A stretch of 64,000 nt of DNA from Bacilli bacterium (GCA_017626815.1 JAGAHY010000140.1:404-64403); one strand, 5' to 3'. Counted from the first letter of the stretch, positions 5,548 through 36,296 are shown. Made by a program: numbers and translations. Notes: generated by a model not told the origin, from the sequence alone.

Positions 5548-6000
5548 ATAAACTCCTTTCGTTTATTCAGGTACATTTTCTGAGCGGGTTTTTGATAGTC
5601 GGTCAAGAATGAATGTTTGCGACAATTAATTTGTTGATTTGCCAAAGGGAAGAGGCCAAATTGTTCGCTTAATTTTCCCTTCATCAATAAAGAGCCGCTT
5701 TCACTAGTTAAGACAATCGAATTGTGGGAAATGTCTAAAAGAATTCTAGCAGCACACCAAACCGCGGTTTAATTCTCTCGGCAATTCCTGGTTAATTTGG
5801 CATCCGTGAGCAACAAATGCCTCGGCAGGCGCTCATTTTTCGGATATTTCTCGTCCTGCCTTTTTATGCGGAAGAGGTAAGCGAACCAGTTCAGATAGCC
5901 CTGGAGATACTCATCCGTCCTCGTGCCTGTGAATCTGGAGAGGAAGCGCTTGACCCATGAAGAGAACGAGCTTATCAGCTGCATAGCCCTAAGCGATTCC

Positions 6001-6579
6001 TCATCCTTCACCGTCGATCTGCCCGGAGCGGTAGACGCCCGTAGTTTCATTATAGGCGATGATGGCTTTCGCTTTGGCCCCGCCGGTGGAGGAGCCGATC
6101 TTGATGAGGTCGCGTAGCTTTCCGATTTCCGGCATGATTTCGGATTCGCTTCGCCTTTTGAGTACGTCTTTTGCCGCATTCGCGATATCCTCGATGCGAA
6201 TTTCGGTCGATTCGTCTAAAGACCCATCAAGATGGGGATAGTATTCTAGGGCGCCCATGCCGCGTTTGCCGATGCAAAGAAGTTTCTCAATCGGGGTGAG
6301 CGAGTTCTTGTCCCTGCCGATGGAAATGAGGTATTCGTTGATGGCCTTTCTGCCGAATTTGTCGGGGGACGAATCCGCGAATAGGCCTGGCAGTGTGCGG
6401 TAGGTTTCGCTGGTCAGACGTGGAAAGGAGTAGGACTCTCTACGCAGAGGCAACATAATGGGCGAAATCTCGATTCCGCGCGCGATGAAAGATGGGTCGT
6501 AGGTGAAATAGACGTTGTTCTCTTCGTCGTTGGCTAGATAACCAACGAGGGTGCCCCAAAGCTTGACCTCCGCGATCAT
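6001..6579 (-). pseudogene. hipA: hipA paralog retaining only the N-terminal ~190 aa; the kinase domain is replaced by unrelated sequence
   Basis: About 90% nt identity to 2209-2655. The frame continues through the position that is a stop in copy 1 (…GMGALEYYPHLDG…) but ends at …SGQIDGEG with no kinase domain. Confidence 0.65.
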
Positions 6580-7169: not shown

Positions 7170-7189
7170 TTCTACCTCAGGTAGAGAAA
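7170..7189. promoter_or_regulatory. Palindromic candidate operator TTCTACC-TCA-GGTAGAGAAA, 68 bp upstream of the HTH-ABC fusion gene
   Basis: Perfect CTACC/GGTAG inverted repeat. The same motif (TTCTACC-GAAA-GTAGAGAAAAA) recurs at 31989-32010 upstream of the paralogous operon. Confidence 0.45.
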
Positions 7190-7256
7190 TAATCGCCCAA
7201 AAAATTTGTTTTTGGCCACCCGTTGCTCAATGATATGGAACGTTTGGAGGATGCTT

Positions 7257-9422
7257 ATGGAAAAACAATACGAAATCGGCAACCTTATCACGAAGCTACG
7301 GAAAGAGAAGAAACTGACGCAGTCTAAACTTGCCGAATCCCTCGGCGTGACAGACAAGTCGGTATCCAAATGGGAGAACGGGAAATGCCTCCCCGACGCT
7401 AGAATCATGCCTCGGCTGTGCGAGATACTTGGCATTACGGTAGAGGAGTTGCTGAATGGCGAATTGAACCCAATCACCGGTTCTACGGAACTAGACGACC
7501 TTCAGCGCCTTGAGCACGTATATAAATATTATTCCGATGATAGCCGCCTCAACGTCGGCGTTTATGACGTGAACCTTACCATGAACCTTGGGGAGGTGAT
7601 CGCTATAACGGGCCCATCGGGGTCAGGGAAATCCACGCTGCTCAAAACCATCGCCGGCATGGTACGGTTTGAGCATGGCGAAATCTATATAAGGAAAGAG
7701 GGCATTTCCCGCTTTGACGAGAGGGACTATGAGTCCTATCGGAAGGCGTTCGTTGGCTATATCTCGCAAAGCTATGGCGTCTTAGAACATTACAGCCTGC
7801 TGGACAACCTCATCATCGTTCGCCTACTGATGGGGGATGGATATGGCGAAGCCAAGAAAAAGGCCCGCGATATGCTGAGGAAATTGGGATTTTTCCGCTT
7901 CGCGAATAAAAAGGCTTCAAAACTATCCGGCGGCCAAAAGCAGAAGCTCGCGATCGCTCGGGCGCTACTGAAGGATACGCCGATGATTCTGGGAGATGAA
8001 ATCACGGCCTCTTTGGATAAGAAGAGCGCGAAAGAGGCGCTGTCCTTCCTTTTTAAGCACTGCGAAGGGAAGGTGGTGGTGCTAGTGACGCACCACTTCG
8101 AGGAGATGGAGGAGTGGTGCACGCGCAAGATCGTCATGGGCGAAGGGCGAATCGTTTCGGACGAGTCGCTTATGGTGAAGCCTAAGCTTAGCGCCAAAGG
8201 CGTCGAAGAACCCGCTCGAACAAAGAAGCGGTTCCTTTTCATCCCCTTGCTTAGAAATCGCTTTGGGCTATTTTGCGTTTTGTCCATGCTTGCCCTAATA
8301 CCCATAGGGACGATCATCGCCGGGAATTATGGCCTCGATATCGCTTATGAGCAGACTTCCCATCGATCCGCCGATCGACTGTTTTCGGAGAATGAGCTTC
8401 TGGTGCGCAAACAGGATGGCTTCTCCATGGAAGAGGTTGAGCGCATCGCTACCTCGACGGAAGGAACTGGCGTCATCGCGATAAAGCAAGGCGGGGAGTA
8501 TAGGCTTGTCGCTACGCCGAAAGTAGAGCAAGGCAAACTGATTTACCGCAGTCCCTATGGCTGGGGTGGCACATCCGTTTGGTTTGCGAAAACGGAGATT
8601 CGCCTTGAGGAAGGCTATTGCGAAATGAACCTCGGCGATTATCTAGAGATTCTGCCCACTCTATGCTTTTTTCAGAAGAAACAGTTCTCTTCCATCGGTT
8701 TGACCTATCTTGATGGCGATGGGGCAAGCCAAGAATGGCAGGCTTATTCCAATGTGCTGATCCTGGATGAATCGGTTACGGATTTCATTGTCCCTCAGGA
8801 ACTATTGCCTGAGGGTTCCCGCCCTGAATCGGTGATCCTTCCCGATGGGACGGCGATCACCGATGTCACAACCCAGTGGCCAGGCCTCGATCTTAGGGGC
8901 CGTGCCCTTGGCATTCCCAAGCGCTACTTCGAATGCTTTGCGGACAGGGTGACGGACTTGCGTTTGCTTTGCCCCAAAGGGGAAAAGGCCGAGATGAAGG
9001 CTTCCCTGGTTCGGGAGGGCTATGTCTGCGCGACGAGCGAAGATGAGCTGGGCAGCCTACAGGATAACAGCCAACTTTTCATAATGGAGACGGCTTTTGC
9101 AGGCATTTCGATCATTGTTGTCACGGTTGTGCTCCTGTTGGCCAGAAAGCTTTCCTCGTCTATTTTGAAATCTCAGAAGAACGAGTTGGAGACCCTTCAT
9201 CAAATCGGCTTTTCCTTTGAGATTATCGGTTTGTCCTATGCGGGCCTGGAGTTTTTGCCCGTATTCGTTGCTTGCTTGGGTTTTGCCATAGCAAGCGGGT
9301 TCATGGGCTTTGCGAGTCCGGTTTTGCTTTGGCTGTCTTTCATTGAGCTTGCTTGCTGCTGCGCGTTTTTGATGAAGGGCAGCGCGAAGACTATAAAGAA
9401 GTTATTGGAGTTGGAACGATGA
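7257..9422 (+). CDS. Fusion protein: N-terminal XRE-family HTH, ABC ATPase domain, C-terminal multi-TM FtsX-like permease region
   Basis: Start taken at MEKQYEIG with a GGAGG RBS; the ORF-track start at 7206 is upstream of it. HTH: LTQSKLAESLGVTDKSVSKWENGK. Walker A GPSGSGKST, signature LSGGQKQK, Walker B ILGDE, H-loop VTHH. Hydrophobic C-terminal third. Confidence 0.8.
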   Translation: MEKQYEIGNLITKLRKEKKLTQSKLAESLGVTDKSVSKWENGKCLPDARIMPRLCEILGITVEELLNGELNPITGSTELDDLQRLEHVYKYYSDDSRLNVGVYDVNLTMNLGEVIAITGPSGSGKSTLLKTIAGMVRFEHGEIYIRKEGISRFDERDYESYRKAFVGYISQSYGVLEHYSLLDNLIIVRLLMGDGYGEAKKKARDMLRKLGFFRFANKKASKLSGGQKQKLAIARALLKDTPMILGDEITASLDKKSAKEALSFLFKHCEGKVVVLVTHHFEEMEEWCTRKIVMGEGRIVSDESLMVKPKLSAKGVEEPARTKKRFLFIPLLRNRFGLFCVLSMLALIPIGTIIAGNYGLDIAYEQTSHRSADRLFSENELLVRKQDGFSMEEVERIATSTEGTGVIAIKQGGEYRLVATPKVEQGKLIYRSPYGWGGTSVWFAKTEIRLEEGYCEMNLGDYLEILPTLCFFQKKQFSSIGLTYLDGDGASQEWQAYSNVLILDESVTDFIVPQELLPEGSRPESVILPDGTAITDVTTQWPGLDLRGRALGIPKRYFECFADRVTDLRLLCPKGEKAEMKASLVREGYVCATSEDELGSLQDNSQLFIMETAFAGISIIVVTVVLLLARKLSSSILKSQKNELETLHQIGFSFEIIGLSYAGLEFLPVFVACLGFAIASGFMGFASPVLLWLSFIELACCCAFLMKGSAKTIKKLLELER

Positions 9423-11416
9423 TTGAACTTAAAGATGTCACGAAAATATACGAATCGCTTGGCGGGGAAAGGTCCGTCGGCGTCGAAGGGATAAGCCTAA
9501 GCATCGCCTCAAAGGGGTTAGTATCGATATTTGGTCCATCCGGTTGCGGAAAGACCACATTGCTGAACCTGATCGGGGGATTGGACTATCCGACTTCGGG
9601 CGCGGTGCTAGTCGACGGGGAAAAGGTGAATGATGCTTATCGCCTTAACCACATAGGCTGCATATTCCAGGATTTCGTGGTAGTGGATTCGCTTTCGGTC
9701 GCGGAGAACATCCGGTTGCTCGATAAATCGATGACGGATGCTAGGGTCAACGAATTGCTCGATAGTTTGGGGATCGGGAGTTTGCGTGACCGCAAGGCAG
9801 GAAGGCTTTCCGGAGGGGAAAAGCAGCGCGTTTGCATCGCTAGGGCTATCGCGAGGAAGCCCTCGTTCATCATCGCCGATGAACCGACGGGGAACCTGGA
9901 TGAGAAGAATAGGATCGCTATCATGGATATCCTGAAATCCCTGTCGAATCATTATTTGGTGATCTTGGTTTCCCATGAGAAGGAATTGGTGGAACGGTAT
10001 AGCGACCGCATCATCTTCATGAAAGATCATAAGGTCGTTTCCGATAGCGCGCCGGAAAAGTCGATGGGCAAATTCGAAGATGGGCGCGACGCCAAGATCT
10101 GCCTGCCTAAGAAGAGGGTAAGGAAAAAGCGAATGAACACCGTCGCCGGGATTCTGTCCGCGATTGTCGTGATGGCGACTTCCTTCGTCTCGTCATTCGT
10201 GGCGGGGGTGGCGGACGCAACGAACCATCAAAGCGATATCGTCTATGCAGTGGACAAGAATCTGGAAGACGAGAAGAGGGAGAAGCTTTCCGACGTCGCT
10301 TTCTTTGGCAATCAGGGGTTTGCCTTTGAACTTGAAGTGGGGGATGGACTGACTTTCCACGCTCTGCCTTTGCCTACAGTCGCCCCGCTCCTTGCTTACG
10401 ATTTCTATTCCTCCGATCCATTTCCTTATGGGGAAGACGAATGTATTATCACCTCTTCGCTTGCGAAATCGATAATCGATGGAGCTTACGTCAAAACCTA
10501 TATGGGCGGCATCGATTTGCCTGCGTCCTCGCTTGGCCTAACCCGCAGCGAAGACTTAATCGGAAATAGGCTGGACAAAGCCTACACCATAAAAGGCGTT
10601 GTTGATGGCGACGAGGATCGATGCTATATCAGCCCACGGCGCTTCTATGCTCGAAGCGGGACCGTGCAGGTGGGGGACGTTCTTTTTAACGGCGATTTCT
10701 ATGATAGCTTCACTTATAGGCGATTCGCCAAGCAGGAAATACGTGACGATGTGATTTACGTGCCTTCTGCAGACATTTTTGGTGAAAAAACGAAGGCTTC
10801 GATAAAGGGAAGAGAGTATTCCATTGAGGTTTTGCCATCTCTTGAAAGGATCGTTTTGCCCGGACCGATCGCAGAGTATTTCCTCGATTCGAATGGATAT
10901 GCCTGCGCTTACGACAATCAGGCGTTCCTTGCCGCGATAGAGGAAAATGGCGTCAAGGCGAAGTCCTTGAGACAAGGCAGGCAGGATTCCATTCAGGGGG
11001 CCAAGGTATTCTTCGGCTCGGTGATTGGCGGAGTCGGATTCGTCGCCTTTGCCTTAATGCAGTTCTTCTTCTTTGTCGACATATCCACGCATTTCGATGA
11101 AAGTCGGAACGAACTGGTCGTCTACCGCGCTTTGGGCGTCGGCAGAGCCAAACTCGTTAACGACAATGTCCTTGGCGTTTTCCTAGGATCCCTGCCCTCT
11201 CTTTGCGTTGGCTCTTTGGCAGGCGCGGTATTAACGCTGTTCATTTGCCGCAATGAACTGGCGGCCCTTTATTTCCTCCCAAATATCGGAGTCTTTTCCA
11301 TCGGCGCGATCTTATCCGCGGCCATTATCGTTGGCGTATCCTATCTATATTCGCTGAAGAGATTCATGGGCAACGCCGCTGAGTTCAAAAGGGCGAACCT
11401 GATAACGGAGTCTTGA
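9419..11416 (+). CDS. MacB-like ABC transporter, ATPase fused to FtsX-type permease
   Basis: Start MIELKDVTKIY overlaps the upstream stop (ATGA). Walker A GPSGCGKTT, LSGGEKQR, IIADEPTGNLD, VSHE. TM segment after residue 250 and C-terminal TM bundle. Confidence 0.85.
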   Translation: MIELKDVTKIYESLGGERSVGVEGISLSIASKGLVSIFGPSGCGKTTLLNLIGGLDYPTSGAVLVDGEKVNDAYRLNHIGCIFQDFVVVDSLSVAENIRLLDKSMTDARVNELLDSLGIGSLRDRKAGRLSGGEKQRVCIARAIARKPSFIIADEPTGNLDEKNRIAIMDILKSLSNHYLVILVSHEKELVERYSDRIIFMKDHKVVSDSAPEKSMGKFEDGRDAKICLPKKRVRKKRMNTVAGILSAIVVMATSFVSSFVAGVADATNHQSDIVYAVDKNLEDEKREKLSDVAFFGNQGFAFELEVGDGLTFHALPLPTVAPLLAYDFYSSDPFPYGEDECIITSSLAKSIIDGAYVKTYMGGIDLPASSLGLTRSEDLIGNRLDKAYTIKGVVDGDEDRCYISPRRFYARSGTVQVGDVLFNGDFYDSFTYRRFAKQEIRDDVIYVPSADIFGEKTKASIKGREYSIEVLPSLERIVLPGPIAEYFLDSNGYACAYDNQAFLAAIEENGVKAKSLRQGRQDSIQGAKVFFGSVIGGVGFVAFALMQFFFFVDISTHFDESRNELVVYRALGVGRAKLVNDNVLGVFLGSLPSLCVGSLAGAVLTLFICRNELAALYFLPNIGVFSIGAILSAAIIVGVSYLYSLKRFMGNAAEFKRANLITES

Positions 11417-11432
11417 TCGTTCCTTGCCTAAG

Positions 11433-11470
11433 CACCATTTGCTTAGCCGGTCTTTTCCTTCATGTCGAGC
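11433..11470 (+). terminator. Possible intrinsic terminator after the ABC operon (cctaagca…tgcttag hairpin plus T-rich tract)
   Basis: Imperfect 7-bp stem followed by ccggtcttttcctt. Confidence 0.3.
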
Positions 11471-11725: not shown

Positions 11726-12253
11726 GTGAAAGCAGCTTTCAAACAACAGCAAATGAATGTATCGAAACGAACCGCGAAATTGTTTCTTCAAGGCGACGAA
11801 GACGCCACCTCCGAGGTTTACTATGCTTACCGGAAGCTTTTGTTTTTCATAATCTCCAACTATGTCGACGGGGAGCAGGATAGAGAGGATGTCTATCAGG
11901 AGGTATTCGCGAAGGTCTTCGAACATCGCTGCGACTGTGCCAAAGCGGAGGGGCTCCATTATTACCTTTGCCAGGTCGCCAAAACGACGGCGATAGACTT
12001 CGGGAGGAAAAAATCCAACAAAATCTATGAGCCCTTTGAGGAAGAAACCGTTCCTTCTAGCGGCGACTCGAACTTGGACTCCTATCTGGACCAGTTCTCC
12101 TTGGACCCTGATGAAAGGGCCATCGCGGGATACCGTTTTGGCTTTGGGCTCTCCTGGAAAGAGATAGTGGATCTCACTGGAATCCCCATGTCGACCGCGA
12201 AGCTTAGATGCAAACAGGCGCTGGGAAAAATTAAAAAGGAATTGGAAAAATGA
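11726..12253 (+). CDS. ECF-type RNA polymerase sigma-70 factor
   Basis: 175 aa. Sigma-70 region 2 and region 4 (…SWKEIVDLTGIPMSTAKLRCKQALGKIKKEL) patterns. Overlaps the next gene by 4 nt. Confidence 0.8.
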   Translation: MKAAFKQQQMNVSKRTAKLFLQGDEDATSEVYYAYRKLLFFIISNYVDGEQDREDVYQEVFAKVFEHRCDCAKAEGLHYYLCQVAKTTAIDFGRKKSNKIYEPFEEETVPSSGDSNLDSYLDQFSLDPDERAIAGYRFGFGLSWKEIVDLTGIPMSTAKLRCKQALGKIKKELEK

Positions 12254-13131
12254 CAAACCATAGCTGCAAAATCGCATTTAAAAACGGCCTGCTGCATAAT
12301 GTTGAGGCCTCATTGCCAAAGGGAGAGGCGTTCGTCGCCTTCAAGAAAAACGCCCTGTCTACCAAGAAGACTATGCTTGCCGCCTGTATGGCATCTGTCG
12401 CAATGTCTTGTCTTGCAGTGGCTGCAATCGTCACGTTTTTCTCCGTGACGAGAAATGAGTATCATGGATGGATAAGATCGCGACTGACTTTCGACGATTA
12501 CTCAGATTTCTCAACTTGCGTGGCTGACAATTCTGACTATACGACAAACGCCCTCCAGAATTATCAGAATAGGTCGTTTAGCCCGTTCTTGGTTAGGACT
12601 GAAAACGCGGAAACGTTAATTGGGTCGACGCCGTATTTCACCATTGAGGGAAGGCATATTCGCAACGGGGATGAGCAGCTTGCGATAACCAGGATGAGCG
12701 CAACTTACAATTCCAATCCCGACAAATCCGGTTCTGAATCCGCAAACGCCGGGCATAAGTCATGGAACTCAGTCAATCTTTATTTTCAGCATTTGTTGTT
12801 TGATCCGCCCTCTGCCCCGTCTCTATACTGGAGCAAAGAAATCCCGCCTGAATGGCTAGAAGAAGGTGGGCGATACTGGAATTACGCCGTGGATTTCTCC
12901 CTTCATTACGTGGCATACCACAACGTGTTAGGGGAAGATCAGAAATTGCGCGTTGACTACCTTATCGATGGCTCGGTTGGCCAGATCGTTTGCGGGATTG
13001 ATTATTACAATCTGGAGTTTGATTCCGCTGTTTCTAAATCGGAAAAAGAGTCCCACGCCACATTGGTTGCAGAATTTAAAAACGCTGTTCTTAGAGATGT
13101 TGTTGATAACTATAAAGGAGATTACATATGA
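12250..13131 (+). CDS. Putative membrane anti-sigma factor (single TM plus ~220-aa extracytoplasmic domain)
   Basis: Translationally coupled to the ECF sigma gene. TM helix MLAACMASVAMSCLAVAAIVTFF. Assignment by context only. Confidence 0.5.
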   Translation: MTNHSCKIAFKNGLLHNVEASLPKGEAFVAFKKNALSTKKTMLAACMASVAMSCLAVAAIVTFFSVTRNEYHGWIRSRLTFDDYSDFSTCVADNSDYTTNALQNYQNRSFSPFLVRTENAETLIGSTPYFTIEGRHIRNGDEQLAITRMSATYNSNPDKSGSESANAGHKSWNSVNLYFQHLLFDPPSAPSLYWSKEIPPEWLEEGGRYWNYAVDFSLHYVAYHNVLGEDQKLRVDYLIDGSVGQIVCGIDYYNLEFDSAVSKSEKESHATLVAEFKNAVLRDVVDNYKGDYI

Positions 13132-29484: not shown

Positions 29485-30156
29485 ATGGAACTGAGCGAAA
29501 AAATCAAAAACATCCGGATGGCAAACGGGCTTTCCCAAACCGAATTCGCCGCCCGCGTTTTTGTCACTCGTCAAGCGGTTAGCAAATGGGAAAAAGGCAG
29601 AAGCCTCCCTTCAACGGAATCCTTAGAGTGTATCGCCAAAGAGTTTTCTGTGCCCCTAGAAGAACTGTTGACGCCTAAAGGAAGGCCCTTTTCTGAAGAA
29701 CTGCTTGTTTTGGCTAGGCATACCCTAAAGCCTTTATTGATCCTTGGTTTGTCTACTGGCTCGGCGTTCATCCTGGCTGCGATATTTATTCTTGTCCCGT
29801 CCCTTGCCTTTCCAAATATGAGCCAAATGCTTTGGATAAGGGCCGGCATCGGGTTTGCTGTTGCGATGGGTGTGGTGGCTTTGATTTTTGGGCCGCTTTT
29901 CCTATATGCTTACTACCCATATAAAAGGTCTGCCATCTTTTATAACCATGACGGAATTTCGCTTTCGCGCAAGAAGGACGTCTTTATTAGGTACGAGAAT
30001 ATAAGGTCTGTTTCGGTGATTCCCTTCGTCCGTTTTGTAAATTCCCTTAAAATCGAGACGACAGGCGGGAAGATCTATAAGATCTATAGCCTAGAAGACG
30101 CTAATCAAGCTAAAACCATTTTAGAATCGGCTATCCTTGATCGCGGTCTTCACTAA
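29485..30156 (+). CDS. Membrane-bound XRE-family HTH regulator (HTH, two TM helices, C-terminal PH-like domain)
   Basis: 223 aa. HTH LSQTEFAARVFVTRQAVSKWEKGRS. TM segments LILGLSTGSAFILAAIFILV and GIGFAVAMGVVALIFGPLFLY. Confidence 0.7.
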   Translation: MELSEKIKNIRMANGLSQTEFAARVFVTRQAVSKWEKGRSLPSTESLECIAKEFSVPLEELLTPKGRPFSEELLVLARHTLKPLLILGLSTGSAFILAAIFILVPSLAFPNMSQMLWIRAGIGFAVAMGVVALIFGPLFLYAYYPYKRSAIFYNHDGISLSRKKDVFIRYENIRSVSVIPFVRFVNSLKIETTGGKIYKIYSLEDANQAKTILESAILDRGLH

Positions 30157-31988: not shown

Positions 31989-32010
31989 TTCTACCGAAAG
32001 TAGAGAAAAA
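31989..32010. promoter_or_regulatory. Palindromic candidate operator TTCTACC-GAAA-GTAGAGAAAAA, 63 bp upstream of HTH-ABC fusion gene copy 2
   Basis: Same half-sites as 7170-7189. Inverted repeat CTAC/GTAG. Confidence 0.45.
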
Positions 32011-32072
32011 ATGACGCGGATAATTTGCGAATAGACGCCTTCGCACGGATGATTAAGGCGAAAGGAACGACA

Positions 32073-34265
32073 ATGGAAAAACAATACGAAATCGGCAATC
32101 TGATCACCGAGCTCCGAAAAGAGAAGAAACTGACCCAATCCAAACTCGCCGAAGCCCTGGGCGTCACGGACAAATCGGTCTCCAAATGGGAGAACGGGAA
32201 AAGCCTGCCTGACACGAAAATCATGCCGCGGCTTTGCGAAATCTTGGGAATCTCGCTCGAAGAGCTATTGGATGGGAAGCGGAAAGCTCTATCTGACTCC
32301 CCGATGCTTGATGACCTTCAACGGCTCGAACACGTCTATAAATATTATTCGGAAGGAAACCGAGTCAACGTCGGCGTCTCCGACATCAACCTTACGCTGA
32401 ATCTTGGCGAGCGCGTCGCCATAACCGGGCCGTCTGGCTCAGGCAAGACGACTCTATTGAAGATGATTGGGGGCATCGATCATTTCGAGCGCGGCGAGAT
32501 TTTCATCCGCAAAGAAGGGATTTCTCGTTTTGATGAGGAGGATTATGAGCTCTACCGAAGGGATTTCATCGCCTATATCTTCCAAGAATATGGCGTTTTG
32601 GAAGACTATTCGTTGCTGGATAACCTCGTCCTTATCCGCCTGCTTATGGGGGACACGCACAAAGAGGCCAAAGCCAAGGCGTTAGCCATGCTCGAAAAGG
32701 TTGGATTTGCGAAATTCGCCGGCAAAAAGGCCTCCAAATTGTCCGGTGGGCAAAAGCAAAAGCTTGCCGTTGCCCGCGCCCTGCTCAAGGATTCGCCAAT
32801 CATCCTCGGGGATGAGATTACTTCGTCGCTCGACAAGAAAAGCGCGAAGGAGGTGCTGCGTCTGCTCTTCGCTAACGCTAACGGGAAACTCGTCGTCTTG
32901 GTCACGCACCACTATGAAGAGGTCGAAGAGTTCTGCACGCGCAAGATCACCATGGCCGATGGTGCGGTAGTGGGGGATGAGATTATTGAGATTACCCCTA
33001 GGACATCGGTTACGCCTCCCCGAATTCACCGAAGCGCGAACCGCCCGAATCCTTTCCGTGCTTTTGGGACACTTTGGCGAAATAGGGCCGGTCTGGTCTT
33101 CGGCCTTTCCTTGCTTTGCCTCATTCCCGCATCCGCCATCATCGCGGCTAACGTCGGCTTGGATTACGCTTATCGCGAAACCTCTCGCCAAACCACGGAG
33201 CACCTATTTGCCGAAAACGAGCTTTATGTTCGGAAGAAGGAAGGCTTCTCCGATGAGGAAATGCGCCAAATCGCCTCCATGGTGGAGGGGACCTTCATCG
33301 CTTCGCCCCACGCCACCCCCGGATTTTCCTATGTTGCCGATCCAAGCGTCTCTCCCGGGGTGCGCTATTGTACAAACAAGGACTCCGTTTTTGGACAAAG
33401 TTATCCAGTGACTTTTGCGGTGACTTTCACCGAGACCCGTCTTAGCGAGAAAGAGGAAACGTATCGGGAGAGGATTTCCATCGAAGACTATATTGCTTTG
33501 GCGCCGGTGTTTTCCTATTTCGGCAAACGGACGGAACAGACGACGGTGCTTAAGTATGTCATCGGCGAAAATGAAGTCACGTCCAACGTCTTCTGCTTCA
33601 ATTTCCGGATCGATGATGAATCGGACGCGGTTTATGTGAACCACGATTTCGCATCTATGGCTTCGAGTTTCCTTTCTTTGACTTTCCCAGATGGGTCGGT
33701 GACGGGAAACGTTATCGTCTCCGAAGGCGAAGGCGCTGGATTGCCCGCTAGCTATGTTGGTTTTACGAAAGCGCACCTTTCGCATTTTCGTTCTAGCGTG
33801 ACGGAGATGAATCTGCTTTGTCCCGCGGGGAAGAAAGAAACGATGAAGTCCGCGTTAAGGGACGCGGGTTATGTCGTCTTAGCGTCCGAAGACGAACTTG
33901 GCGGCATCAAAGGCAACGACGTCCTCTTCTCAAACGAAGCGTTGTTCTCCCTCTTTTCCGTAATCTTAACCGTGATATTGATCCCTCTTACGCGCCGCTT
34001 CTCCTCCCTGGTTTATAAAGGACAGAGACCTGAGATGGTTTTGTGGCGCAGGATCGGCTTTTCGGGAAGGGACGTGTCTGCGTCTTTCGTAGCGCTGCAA
34101 ACGGTGCCAATGCTTGCTATATGCTGCGTTTATCTTACGACATTCTGGATCGTCGGATTCGTTAGCCCCGCTTTGCTTACCCTTTCCTTTATCGAGATCG
34201 GTCTAATGGCTTATTTCCTTTGCAACGGGGACATCAAAGCCATAAGGAAGGCCATGGAGGAATAA
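32073..34265 (+). CDS. Paralog of 7257-9422: XRE HTH, ABC ATPase and permease fusion
   Basis: Start at MEKQYEIGNLITELRKEKKLTQSKLAEALGVTDKSVSKWENGK. GPSGSGKTT, LSGGQKQK, ILGDE, VTHH. Hydrophobic C-terminal region. About 75% aa identity to copy 1 over the HTH/ATPase part. Confidence 0.8.
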   Translation: MEKQYEIGNLITELRKEKKLTQSKLAEALGVTDKSVSKWENGKSLPDTKIMPRLCEILGISLEELLDGKRKALSDSPMLDDLQRLEHVYKYYSEGNRVNVGVSDINLTLNLGERVAITGPSGSGKTTLLKMIGGIDHFERGEIFIRKEGISRFDEEDYELYRRDFIAYIFQEYGVLEDYSLLDNLVLIRLLMGDTHKEAKAKALAMLEKVGFAKFAGKKASKLSGGQKQKLAVARALLKDSPIILGDEITSSLDKKSAKEVLRLLFANANGKLVVLVTHHYEEVEEFCTRKITMADGAVVGDEIIEITPRTSVTPPRIHRSANRPNPFRAFGTLWRNRAGLVFGLSLLCLIPASAIIAANVGLDYAYRETSRQTTEHLFAENELYVRKKEGFSDEEMRQIASMVEGTFIASPHATPGFSYVADPSVSPGVRYCTNKDSVFGQSYPVTFAVTFTETRLSEKEETYRERISIEDYIALAPVFSYFGKRTEQTTVLKYVIGENEVTSNVFCFNFRIDDESDAVYVNHDFASMASSFLSLTFPDGSVTGNVIVSEGEGAGLPASYVGFTKAHLSHFRSSVTEMNLLCPAGKKETMKSALRDAGYVVLASEDELGGIKGNDVLFSNEALFSLFSVILTVILIPLTRRFSSLVYKGQRPEMVLWRRIGFSGRDVSASFVALQTVPMLAICCVYLTTFWIVGFVSPALLTLSFIEIGLMAYFLCNGDIKAIRKAMEE

Positions 34266-34268
34266 GCG

Positions 34269-36296
34269 ATGATTGAATTACTAAACGTAACGAAGACCTA
34301 TGATGCGGGCGAAATTAGTGAAGTGACGGCCGTCAATGACGTGAACTTAAAGATCGGCAACGCCGGATTGGTCTGCCTCTTTGGCCCTTCAGGGTGTGGC
34401 AAAACGACGTTATTGAACCTCATCGGCGGATTGGACGCCCCAACAAAAGGCAAGGTCCTCGTCGATGGGAAAAGCGTGGATGATGCGTTCCGGTTAAACC
34501 ATGTGGGATGCGTGTTCCAGGATTTCGTGTTGATGGACTCGCTTACGGTAGCGGAAAACGTCCGTCTCCTCGACCCCTCCATCACCGATGCCCGCATCAA
34601 CGAAACGCTCTCTAGTTTGGGAATCCTTGGCTTGCGTGAAAGAAAGGCGTCCAAACTTTCGGGCGGCGAGAAGCAACGCGTTTGCATCGCTAGGGCGATC
34701 ATTGGGAACCCTTCATTCATCATCGCGGATGAACCAACGGGGAACCTCGATGGGGAAAACCGCGTCGCCATCATGCGCATATTGAAGTCGATTTCGAAGC
34801 GCACCCTCGTCCTTTTGGTCTCCCACGAAAAGGATCTTGTCGAAGAATACGCCGATCGGATCATCCGCATCGAGGACGGTTCCATCGTTAGCGATTCAAA
34901 TTCCGATTTCGCTGCAAATACGGCATTTTCGATTGGAAAATGCGTTGATACGAAGGTTCCTTTGCGCAGGACAAAGCGCAAAAAATCCAATATCGTGGCG
35001 GGAATTTTATCCTGCATCGCCATCATTGCCTCTTGCTTTATCGCTGGCTTTGTTTCCGGCAAGGCCGAGGCGACAAACCGTTATCCGGAAACCGTTTATC
35101 GGATGACCAAACCCATGGACGCCGAAGACCGCGCCGTCCTCTCCCCCTATGCTTTTTTCCGTAGCTGCCCAACCGTGGGCGGGCTTTCTCTTGGCGATAG
35201 CGAAACGACGGAGCATGGCTTCGTCGGCGGCCCCGTCGTTCTCCCGTTTGATTTCTATGGTTCGGGCACCTCTTGGGAATATGACGAGGACTCCATCGTC
35301 CTCACCAGCGGCGCCGCGAAAACGTTGATAGAAAAGTCGTATTCAAGTTTGCGCAATTCCTATCGAAACCTCATGCTTTCCCAATATGGGATCAACAAAG
35401 CGGATGATCTCATTGGATTACGTTTCAAAACCGGGCACACGATCCGCGCGATTTTGCCCGGGGAGGAAAACGTGGGCTATATCAGCCCGCGAAGTTTTTA
35501 TCGCTTAGGCGCCACGATATTCGCTGGCGATGGCGAAACAAAAGAATATTATGCTTTCAATTATTTCTCCTCTCGCGCGTTCGTTCATCTCGCCGGCATC
35601 GACCTTGGCGAAGACAAAATCTATGCTCCTAAGGACCATCCCGTCGCCAAAAGGGAATTCATGGAGATTGGAGGAAGAAGCTACAAGGTCGAGGTTTCCC
35701 CTTCGCTGCAAGGGTTTGAGGAACTTGTTCTGCCCTCTTATGCGGCTTCTGCGATCGCGGGCGATTCCATCACTTGGGCCTATGCTTGGGACAATGACAC
35801 TTTTAGCAAACTCATCCGATCTTACGAAAATGTTGACTCTGAGAATCTACATGAAGCCGAGGCGCGGCGTATCAACCAAACAAAAGCCATATTCGGTTCT
35901 ATCGTCGGCGGCGTCGGATTAGCGGCTTTTGCCCTTATGTCCTATTTCTATGCGGTCGATTTGCAGGCCTACTTCAAAGACAACAAAAACGAATACGTCG
36001 TTTACCGTAGCTTAGGAGTGAATAGATCCCGCTTATTCAAGAGAGCGTTGCTGGGCGTATTCTCTGGCGCGCTTCCTTTGATGGCCGTCGGCTCACTCTC
36101 TGGGGTATTGATCGTCGCTTTCTTGGGGCGAAGCGATGTGGCAAGCCTCTATTTGACACTGCACATCGGCACCTTCTTCATTGGAGTTTCCTTGGCCGTC
36201 CTACTCGTGCTGTCTCTTTGTGCCGTGCTGCTTTGGAAAAGGTTCTTGCCAAGCGCCGCGGAATTCAAAAGGTTAAACCAGCAGATAGAGCCGTAG
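34269..36296 (+). CDS. Paralog of 9419-11416: MacB-like ABC ATPase::FtsX permease
   Basis: GPSGCGKTT, LSGGEKQR, IIADEPTGNLD, VSHE. Same TM organisation as copy 1. Confidence 0.85.
   Translation: MIELLNVTKTYDAGEISEVTAVNDVNLKIGNAGLVCLFGPSGCGKTTLLNLIGGLDAPTKGKVLVDGKSVDDAFRLNHVGCVFQDFVLMDSLTVAENVRLLDPSITDARINETLSSLGILGLRERKASKLSGGEKQRVCIARAIIGNPSFIIADEPTGNLDGENRVAIMRILKSISKRTLVLLVSHEKDLVEEYADRIIRIEDGSIVSDSNSDFAANTAFSIGKCVDTKVPLRRTKRKKSNIVAGILSCIAIIASCFIAGFVSGKAEATNRYPETVYRMTKPMDAEDRAVLSPYAFFRSCPTVGGLSLGDSETTEHGFVGGPVVLPFDFYGSGTSWEYDEDSIVLTSGAAKTLIEKSYSSLRNSYRNLMLSQYGINKADDLIGLRFKTGHTIRAILPGEENVGYISPRSFYRLGATIFAGDGETKEYYAFNYFSSRAFVHLAGIDLGEDKIYAPKDHPVAKREFMEIGGRSYKVEVSPSLQGFEELVLPSYAASAIAGDSITWAYAWDNDTFSKLIRSYENVDSENLHEAEARRINQTKAIFGSIVGGVGLAAFALMSYFYAVDLQAYFKDNKNEYVVYRSLGVNRSRLFKRALLGVFSGALPLMAVGSLSGVLIVAFLGRSDVASLYLTLHIGTFFIGVSLAVLLVLSLCAVLLWKRFLPSAAEFKRLNQQIEP

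Follow-up and report, generated by a model that had tools for sequence, protein, structure and literature searches.

In the BceAB-BceRS modules of Bacillota, a transporter of the FtsX/MacB superfamily with a large, variable outside (extracytoplasmic) domain is itself the sensor through which it is induced, expression tracks transporter activity, and the whole constitutes a stand-alone resistance and sensing module (PMC9169098, PMC5985334, PMC7038271). The permease, BceB, is a single protein of 10 transmembrane (TM) helices, its ATPase, BceA, is a protein apart, and signalling runs by way of a histidine kinase and a response regulator. A one-component arrangement is found in BcrR-BcrAB of Enterococcus faecalis, where an N-terminal XRE-type helix-turn-helix (HTH) domain on a membrane protein activates an ATP-binding cassette (ABC) transporter operon (PMC3968067). 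BcrR is a separate, small protein with four TM helices, no ATPase, no outside domain and its own transcription, and BcrAB is of the ABC-2 type. In MacB and the MacB-like pumps of Gram-positive bacteria, Spr0694-0695 and YknYZ, an ATPase is fused to or paired with a four-TM permease of the FtsX type in which an extracytoplasmic domain lies between TM1 and TM2, the layout described for MacB/FtsX (type VII ABC) transporters (PMC5985334); MacB itself is homodimeric, depends on an adaptor (MacA/YknX) as its partner and carries the MacB_PCD domain. The subject here is a 64,000-nucleotide (nt) stretch of DNA from Bacilli bacterium (GCA_017626815.1, JAGAHY010000140.1:404-64403), an uncultured gut member of the Bacillota, called the window below, and in it two paralogous two-gene operons, each of which begins with a gene (gene 1) that encodes an XRE-type HTH, an ABC ATPase and a permease in one chain and continues with a gene (gene 2) that encodes an ABC ATPase joined to an FtsX-type permease.

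That the HTH-ATPase-permease architecture is real we regard as almost certain, and a conserved candidate operator upstream of gene 1 is reported here as a new finding. A preliminary description of the window had likened the transporter to a BcrAB-like pump; it is not of the ABC-2 type, and its nearest functional analogy is a BceAB-type sensing transporter. The best overall explanation, held with modest confidence, is a self-contained, heterodimeric type VII transporter that would autoregulate through its HTH and an operator, with expression linked to transport activity.

The fused gene, its family and its partner

The features of operon A (7257-11416) and operon B (32073-36296) are as follows.

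7257-9422, + strand: gene 1A, 721 amino acids (aa), a continuous open reading frame (ORF) identical to NCBI MBO5529006.1
Residues 1-68 (nt 7257-7460), + strand: XRE HTH of gene 1A (Pfam, family alignment)
Residues 69-83, + strand: short linker of gene 1A between HTH and ATPase
Residues 84-305 (nt 7506-8171), + strand: ABC ATPase of gene 1A (Pfam, family alignment)
Residues ~335-357, + strand: TM1 of gene 1A (hydropathy)
Residues ~361-603 (nt 8337-9065), + strand: outside domain of gene 1A (hydropathy, AlphaFold2 model)
Residues ~604-719 (nt 9066-9413), + strand: TM2-4 of gene 1A (hydropathy, AlphaFold2 model)
9419-11416, + strand: gene 2A, 665 aa, its start overlapping the gene 1A stop (ATGA, 9419-9422)
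Gene 2A domains: ABC ATPase, residues 1-210; TM1, ~239-262; outside domain, ~268-527; FtsX-type TM2-4, residues 528-650
11428-11446, + strand: terminator-like hairpin directly 3' of gene 2A, which likely marks the end of the two-gene operon A
32073-34265, + strand: gene 1B, 730 aa, paralog of gene 1A with the same order of HTH, ATPase, TM helix, outside domain and three TM helices, identical to NCBI MBO5529023.1
34269-36296, + strand: gene 2B, 675 aa, ABC ATPase and FtsX-type permease, paralog of gene 2A, beginning 3 nt past the gene 1B stop

All four ORFs were unbroken reading frames at the positions first assigned to them, and the domains first proposed for them, a Cro/C1-type HTH with an ABC ATPase and a multi-TM region in gene 1 and an ATPase-FtsX permease fusion in gene 2, were recovered independently. 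Thus, Pfam placed HTH_3/HTH_19 at residues 8-69 and ABC_tran at about residues 104-251 of the products of genes 1A and 1B, the HTH of gene 1A scoring 55.5 bits for HTH_19 (cut-off 30.2) and 47.3 bits for HTH_3 (cut-off 23) and that of gene 1B 57.8 bits for HTH_3. ABC_tran was matched in both subunits of both paralogs with E values of 1e-28 to 1e-34 (2.8e-33 for gene 2A), and FtsX was matched above the gathering threshold in subunit 2 of both operons (28.7 and 26.0 bits against a cut-off of 25.5; E = 1.5e-6 for gene 2A). The gene 1 ATPase carries Walker A (GPSGSGKS), a Q-loop, LSGGQKQK, Walker B (ILGDE) and an H-loop, all listed beforehand and all invariant over the 33 members of a family alignment, and the canonical set, including the catalytic Glu of Walker B, is present in both subunits of both paralogs and invariant in the family alignments. 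By hydropathy the four proteins are alike: the ATPase is followed by a single TM helix, then by a loop of 245-270 residues (about 245 aa for the outside domain of gene 1) and finally by three TM helices. The ATGA overlap between stop and start codons that had been claimed for both operons was seen in operon A only; operon B reads TAA-GCG-ATG.

A family search of 5.8 billion clustered proteins recovered the same fusion in about 36 clusters at 90% identity (P0001-P0036), each with HTH and ABC_tran and 707-768 aa long when complete. A gap in score, from 415 to 209 bits, separated these from relatives that lack the HTH. Named sources were metagenome-assembled genomes of 'Bacilli bacterium' and 'Anaeroplasmataceae bacterium', and the clusters came from NCBI, ENA, JGI and Logan assemblies; for the window gene 1 products, NCBI annotation gives only 'ATP-binding cassette domain-containing protein'. 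An XRE HTH (HTH_3 clan, Pfam) was matched in all 33 aligned members, and the HTH was the best-conserved part of the gene 1 protein, with T21, Q22, S37, K38, W39, E40, N41 and G42 invariant though whole proteins drop to 32-35% identity. The HTH-ATPase junction, LDDLxRLEHVYKYY, was also highly conserved. With frames continuous in both window copies and throughout about 36 clusters of independent assemblies, the partner gene retained and the junction strongly conserved, the idea that misassembly, a frameshift or pseudogene decay lies behind the fusion is in effect refuted, and the fusion, as read from these comparisons, is a genuine, selected architecture, as had been argued from the two window copies. 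Other searches for fusions gave less. An HTH-only homolog search returned just short XRE proteins of 65-160 aa and was uninformative on fusions; in a profile scan of genome contigs with the family alignment, SKWEN and LSGGQKQK proved too generic and the sole true member was L001, although the scan also brought to light the soluble HTH-ATPase fusions of L002 and L005 described below; and an apparent fusion in L029 actually consisted of two things merged by tblastn, a small protein with HTH and TM segments and an FtsEX operon distinct from it.

The pair had been described as an unusual ATPase-permease fusion followed by a MacB-like half transporter. This distinction was not upheld, as both genes appear to encode half transporters of the MacB/FtsX type. 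The four-TM layout, in which TM1 is separated from TM2 by a large extracytoplasmic domain, was found in all four proteins. An AlphaFold2 model of gene 1A served as the structural query for subunit 1 (mean predicted local distance difference test score, pLDDT, 80.5; permease and outside domain confident), with helices at residues 336-367, 604-638, 654-683 and 688-719. The seven best full-length Foldseek matches to it in the PDB were MacB chains (5lil, 5lj7, 5gko, 5lj6, 5nik), with E values of about 1e-16 to 1e-20, 664-705 aligned columns and TM-scores of 0.38-0.50 for a query that is itself a prediction. By sequence, the gene 1A ATPase was nearest to Spr0694 (5xu1), MJ0796, MacB, BceA, YtrE and LolD. 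Sub-threshold Pfam matches to FtsX were present in subunit 1 of 13 of the 33 family members (E<=1; best 1.4e-4), the window copies having no match, and PF02687 (FtsX) was found in some of the close relatives of gene 1 that lack the HTH. The closest of these relatives are also paired: at L094:5001-9762, a 744-aa ABC-permease and an 841-aa ABC-FtsX protein are encoded side by side, embedded in the region of nusG and the genes for ribosomal proteins L11-L1-L10-L12.

A gene 2 homolog directly followed gene 1 in all 11 related loci, with stop and start codons overlapping or nearly abutting. Because of this constant partnership, and because both ATPases are canonical, it is highly probable that the products of genes 1 and 2 form a MacB-type heterodimer, i.e., a type VII ABC transporter; the most economical reading, we infer, is that the heterodimer has two active ATP sites.

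A conserved palindrome upstream of gene 1

Upstream of each operon the following features were noted.

7170-7185, + strand: candidate operator A, TTCTACCTCAGGTAGA (TTCTAC-N5-GTAGA), 87 nt upstream of the gene 1A start, an exact match to the pattern
31989-32004, + strand: candidate operator B, TTCTACCGAAAGTAGA, 84 nt upstream of the gene 1B start
7206-7234, + strand: predicted weak promoter A, with -35 TTGTTT (7206-7211), a 17-nt spacer and -10 AATGAT (7229-7234)
32025-32053, + strand: predicted weak promoter B, with -35 TTGCGA (32025-32030), a 17-nt spacer and -10 GATGAT (32048-32053), offset from the palindrome as in A

Alignment of the regions upstream of operons A and B left one conserved block, the palindrome. 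The pattern TTCTAC-N5-GTAGA occurred at only two sites in the 64-kb window, both before gene 1 (0.55 expected, with up to one mismatch). In a survey of 13 family loci, the palindrome lay 84-93 nt before the gene 1 start codon in every case (in one locus with GTGGA), in hosts that ranged in G+C content from 22 to 57% and with flanking sequence that was not conserved. Nine of the 11 related loci held exactly one copy; L087 held only the GTGGA variant and L086 a second copy. Upstream palindromes had thus been correctly anticipated in the preliminary description; the self-regulation proposed with them is strongly suggested by a motif conserved before all 13 operons and unique to those sites in the window.

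To judge from sequence, the fused HTH very probably binds the palindrome and autoregulates its operon. The distance between the half-sites equals one turn of the helix, which is the spacing to be expected if two XRE-type HTHs occupy the same side of the DNA. The positions of an HTH that usually touch DNA (T21, Q22, S37, K38, W39, E40 and N41) are invariant in the family. As RNA, the palindrome would form only a weak hairpin (-4.2 kcal/mol in operon B), its arms are invariant in sequence rather than covarying in pairing, and a search of Rfam and RNA folding of the leader gave no match, no riboswitch and no stable structure; a protein-bound DNA site is therefore the better reading. These results on RNA count against the alternative that the palindrome is an RNA element or the site of some other factor, the HTH serving for protein contact or for non-specific nucleoid tethering. 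What speaks for that alternative is the presence of one HTH per heterodimer for a site with two arms and, in three low-GC loci (L085, L090 and L092), a T-run after the palindrome, which could make it a weak terminator of the upstream gene. Nevertheless, wherever the fused HTH was examined (13 of 13 loci) it was accompanied by the motif, which is missing from the 250 nt upstream of the first gene in L094, where the HTH is lacking; a different HTH-ATPase family, described below, has its own, slightly different palindrome; and the DNA-contacting positions belong to the most conserved part of the protein. Recognition by another factor, or a role in RNA, is therefore considered very improbable.

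The second copy in L086 (TTCTACTCATAGTAGA, L086:1481-1496) precedes by about 138 nt an operon with genes for an acyltransferase, two GT8 glycosyltransferases, a further acyltransferase and a diacylglycerol kinase; that operon is found just upstream of the HTH-ABC pair. A looser TTCTAC-N14-GTAGA is found at about L086:1546-1570. The second site is a hint that the regulon may extend to genes for envelope lipids or glycolipids.

The sign of the predicted regulation was considered from promoter geometry, which is the least secure step in the analysis and suggestive only. Promoters A and B were obtained by custom weighted hexamer scoring; a standard promoter scan found nothing between the palindrome and the ATG in operons A and B. 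In 12 of the 13 loci a -35-like hexamer began exactly 36 nt after the start of the palindrome, being TTGnnn in nine of 13, and was followed by a 17-18-nt spacer and a -10-like hexamer; the promoter candidate at this offset ranked top in eight of the 13. The palindrome is thus 20 bp upstream of the predicted -35, with its centre near -63.5. Activation, in the manner of membrane regulators such as BcrR and ToxR, is slightly favoured over repression as the predicted mode of control, since the palindrome keeps a constant distance to a core promoter that is downstream of it and has poor -35 and -10 hexamers.

A conserved palindrome would suit a repressor equally, and most XRE/Cro-C1 proteins are repressors. 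In plain negative autoregulation the HTH would serve as a repressor, or as a dosage gauge, silencing the operon once the membrane has enough transporter, transporter activity would have no input to transcription, and the fusion would do no more than secure stoichiometry and membrane sequestration. Some loci do have a -10-like hexamer right after the palindrome (TAAAAT in L083), which would put the site over the core promoter, and such abutting hexamers were the second-ranked candidates in the hexamer scoring. The best and most consistent candidate, in contrast, was downstream of the site, with a 20-nt gap in 12 of 13 loci; a fixed spacing between site and -35 is typical of activator sites; and weak promoters are expected if transcription depends on an activator. 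Plain negative autoregulation is on these grounds considered unlikely, and a further point that bears on it is given below.

Independent fusions, paralog divergence and a proposed mechanism

When a profile of HTH, linker and Walker A was searched against 1.84 billion representatives, seven representatives of the gene 1 family were recovered (one of them, P0217, a 363-aa fragment), together with a distinct HTH-ABC-FtsX protein of 918 aa (P0348) and several soluble HTH-ATPase fusions of 280-360 aa. At the top of the same search stood giant proteins with tandem XRE-type HTHs (P0212, 2332 aa; P0216, 4162 aa; P0213; P0214), in which 10-24 stretches were matched; their odd architecture has no relation to the gene 1 fusion. 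P0348, P0397 and P0398, three clusters only, are HTH-ABC-FtsX proteins of about 915 aa that look unrelated to the gene 1 family. They are nested among hundreds of ATPase-FtsX fusions without an HTH, of which the named ones are from Clostridia, and this comparison of sequences indicates that their HTH was acquired independently. One of these soluble fusions is from a cultured organism, Robinsoniella peoriensis (WP_459447032.1). A soluble XRE-HTH::ABC-ATPase fusion of 326 aa is also encoded at L002:1420-3907 and L005:1512-4070, with a gene for an ABC-2-type permease after it, the fused gene in L005 appearing interrupted (250-aa ORF). These two loci share a palindrome of their own, CTATAC-N5-GTATAG, about 55-63 nt before the start and adjacent to a -10 that is strong (TATAAT) and a -35 that is poor. 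Thus, an XRE HTH has been fused to the N-terminus of an ABC ATPase at least three separate times, in the gene 1 family, in the Clostridia-type HTH-ABC-FtsX proteins and in soluble ABC-2 subunits. Repeated fusion of HTH to ATPase, each with its own operator where examined, argues that the ATPase contributes to regulation, and would be hard to explain under plain negative autoregulation, where the ATPase is irrelevant to regulation.

The two window operons are more diverged than the roughly 75% amino acid identity first given for them, a value approached only by the HTH and ATPase domains. Identity between copies over whole proteins is 51% for gene 1 and 46% for gene 2. By domain it is 88% for the HTH and 71% (gene 1) and 68% (gene 2) for the ATPases, compared with 35% and 32% for the outside domains and 34% and 45% for the C-terminal TM bundles. 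Because the recognition-helix segment, VTDKSVSKWENGK, is the same in genes 1A and 1B, the two operons probably share regulation. The quick divergence of the outside domains relative to the conserved HTH and ATPase fits a shift in ligand specificity between the paralogs.

Neighbours of the gene pair were unlike in every one of the 11 related loci, and included a tRNA synthetase, HipBA, MMPL/TetR, glycosyltransferases, GerA, peptidases and others. In the window they are an S8 peptidase, a HipA fragment, a sigma factor, Fic, DUF6273 and an AAA_14/DUF4143 ATPase; none of these is conserved in related loci, and they were set aside as clues to function. Because neighbouring genes differ in every locus, the two-gene module is autonomous. 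No MacA/YknX-like adaptor gene adjoined the pair in the window or the 11 related loci, and no histidine kinase or response regulator was found beside the operons in any of the same loci. PADLOC returned merely generic HTH and ABC-ATPase domain matches and no known defence system. Because SpoIVA, GerA, SASP and Mur-ligase genes are present in related loci, the host organisms are probably walled spore-formers despite the 'Anaeroplasmataceae' label.

Two MacB-family systems, AS-48EFGH and YknXYZ, handle endogenous peptides (PMC5985334), and the ATPases of the module scored 144-168 bits against TIGR03608, 'putative bacteriocin export ABC transporter'. The module might therefore export, or give immunity to, a peptide or other product made by the cell itself, the HTH tying export capacity to production. 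The scores are far under the curated NCBIfam cut-off of 254.85, with generic ATPase models scoring about equally, and no conserved biosynthetic, precursor or modification genes stand next to the module in the 11 loci, where the neighbours differ in every case. Export of a self-made product is thus regarded as improbable.

Several neighbouring genes are recorded as observations in their own right. Next to operon A, at window positions 5769-6579 (- strand), a 192-aa ORF for a HipA N-terminal domain (Couple_hipA) overlaps another frame and looks like a truncated or frameshifted hipA, and in L083 and L084 intact hipB-hipA pairs are found a few kb ahead of the homologous operon. Just past operon A (11726-13131, + strand) are a small sigma-70 protein (Sigma70_r2/r4) and an overlapping 293-aa protein of no known family, possibly an anti-sigma factor; a Sigma70_r4 protein is also encoded downstream of the operon at L081:10500-11021, which may be coincidence. 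At 29485-30156 (+ strand), 2 kb upstream of operon B, is a gene whose 223-aa product combines an XRE HTH at its N-terminus with hydrophobic segments and would thus be a small regulator anchored in the membrane, of the BcrR or transmembrane transcription regulator kind; its recognition helix, TRQAVSKWEKG, is unlike that of the fused HTH.

The mechanism proposed for the autoregulating type VII transporter would be as follows. Through the fused HTH, the membrane-embedded transporter would sit at its own promoter on TTCTAC-N5-GTAGA and control its own synthesis, two complexes or a homodimer of subunit 1 filling the two half-sites. In subunit 1 a linker of about 13-15 residues joins the HTH to the first strand of the ATPase, at the end of which, 27 residues before Walker A, is KYY, which we take to be the adenine-stacking A-loop. 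Because this short linker ties the HTH to the A-loop strand, nucleotide binding and closure of the ATPase dimer could change how the HTH is presented to the half-sites. Thus, a ligand would engage the variable outside domains and cause ATP turnover, promoter activation would be altered, and expression would track transporter activity, one polypeptide doing the task of BceAB plus BceS-BceR (three or four). The job of the module would be the sensing and removal of an extracellular or membrane-surface compound, e.g., an antimicrobial peptide, and paralogs A and B would differ in specificity and use one common operator. Coupling of regulation to the ATP cycle is proposed tentatively, being somewhat less probable than its absence. 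An antimicrobial-type substrate is a guess by analogy, more doubtful still. A similarly guarded view is taken of the fullest form of the proposal, in which the ABC transporter would itself be a transcription factor whose HTH is repositioned by the ATP cycle, giving kinase-free flux sensing in a single polypeptide that evolved independently at least three times.

Several observations weigh against this mechanism or parts of it. In the gene 1A model the HTH-ATPase interface is not confident (residues 74-102, AlphaFold2 pLDDT <50). The predicted binding of the HTH to the palindrome is drawn solely from their co-conservation, and with one HTH per heterodimer against a two-armed palindrome, binding as proposed needs the two complexes or the subunit 1 homodimer. 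Promoters A and B fall below the threshold of the standard scan, such that both the -63.5 position and the call of an activator depend on the custom scoring. With regard to the transporter itself, FtsX was not matched at the Pfam threshold in subunit 1 of the window copies or the 33 family members, MacB_PCD was not detected by Pfam in the outside domain of either subunit, and alignment of subunit 1 and subunit 2 profiles with hhalign covered the ATPase through TM1 only, so that homology of the two C-terminal regions rests on topology and predicted fold. Among the window neighbours there was no pointer to a substrate.

If the proposal is true, the module would be the most compact known link of transport activity to gene expression, one protein binding the stimulus, burning ATP and occupying the promoter. 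For research on ABC proteins it would supply a natural readout of the ATPase cycle, and it would provide a case of a membrane-bound transcription factor with a defined, energy-driven conformational change, in a field where the way in which such factors get to a promoter and switch it on is still a question (PMC3968067, PMC10269533). It would also mean that domain fusion can replace a Bce-type relay of transporter, kinase and regulator. The conserved operator makes the idea of autoregulation directly testable, and a module as small as two genes and a 16-bp site could become a portable biosensor once its ligands are known.

Comparison with known systems

We know of no N-terminal HTH in the MacB family. 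In contrast with MacB, the window pair consists of two different subunits with no adaptor gene and no detected MacB_PCD, and falls outside MacB proper. A review of the MacB family lists its known permutations of architecture and does not mention a DNA-binding domain. In contrast with BceAB-BceRS, the window module has two fused ATPase-4TM halves, no adjoining two-component genes and a DNA-binding domain on the transporter itself; it does not belong with the BceAB type, and the resemblance is functional only. Gene 1 likewise differs from BcrR in that HTH, full ATPase and MacB-type permease are contained in a chain of 721 aa, and it has in common with BcrR only the type of HTH and the membrane location, which places it outside that group as well. 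The merged BcrR-BcrA layout suggested by the preliminary description is present in other genomes, in L002 and L005, rather than in the window.

The soluble XRE-HTH::ABC-ATPase fusions (WP_459447032.1, L002 and L005), themselves uncharacterised, bear the same kind of HTH (…VSKWENG…LP…) at the N-terminus of an ABC ATPase. They are unlike gene 1 in length, at about 300-360 aa, and those of L002 and L005 are accompanied by separate ABC-2-type permeases and by a half-site, CTATAC, that lies nearer to the -35 (centre about -43). A likeness in principle is seen in PutA and other 'trigger' proteins, where a working enzyme or transport protein has a DNA-binding domain at its N-terminus and controls the operon that encodes it, depending on the state in which it is working. 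PutA, a peripheral flavoenzyme whose DNA-binding domain is of the ribbon-helix-helix type, shuttles between DNA and membrane; it is not an ABC protein, and it is not integral to the membrane.

The broadest comparison is with transmembrane transcription regulators of the ToxR, CadC and TcpP type, in which a DNA-binding domain and TM helices occur in one protein (PMC10269533). With HTH_3 and four predicted TM helices, gene 1 formally fits the definition used for that class, its regulatory function being predicted. Among 50,302 such regulators surveyed, ABC_tran was the partner once, FtsX 72 times and MacB_PCD 76 times (PMC10269533 supplement). Literature searches found no paper describing an HTH-ABC transporter fusion, and a complete ATP-driven transporter as a sensor module is essentially undescribed. 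The gene 1 product is thus best classed with the transmembrane one-component regulators, as a rare and uncharacterised kind in which the predicted sensor is a complete type VII ABC transporter.

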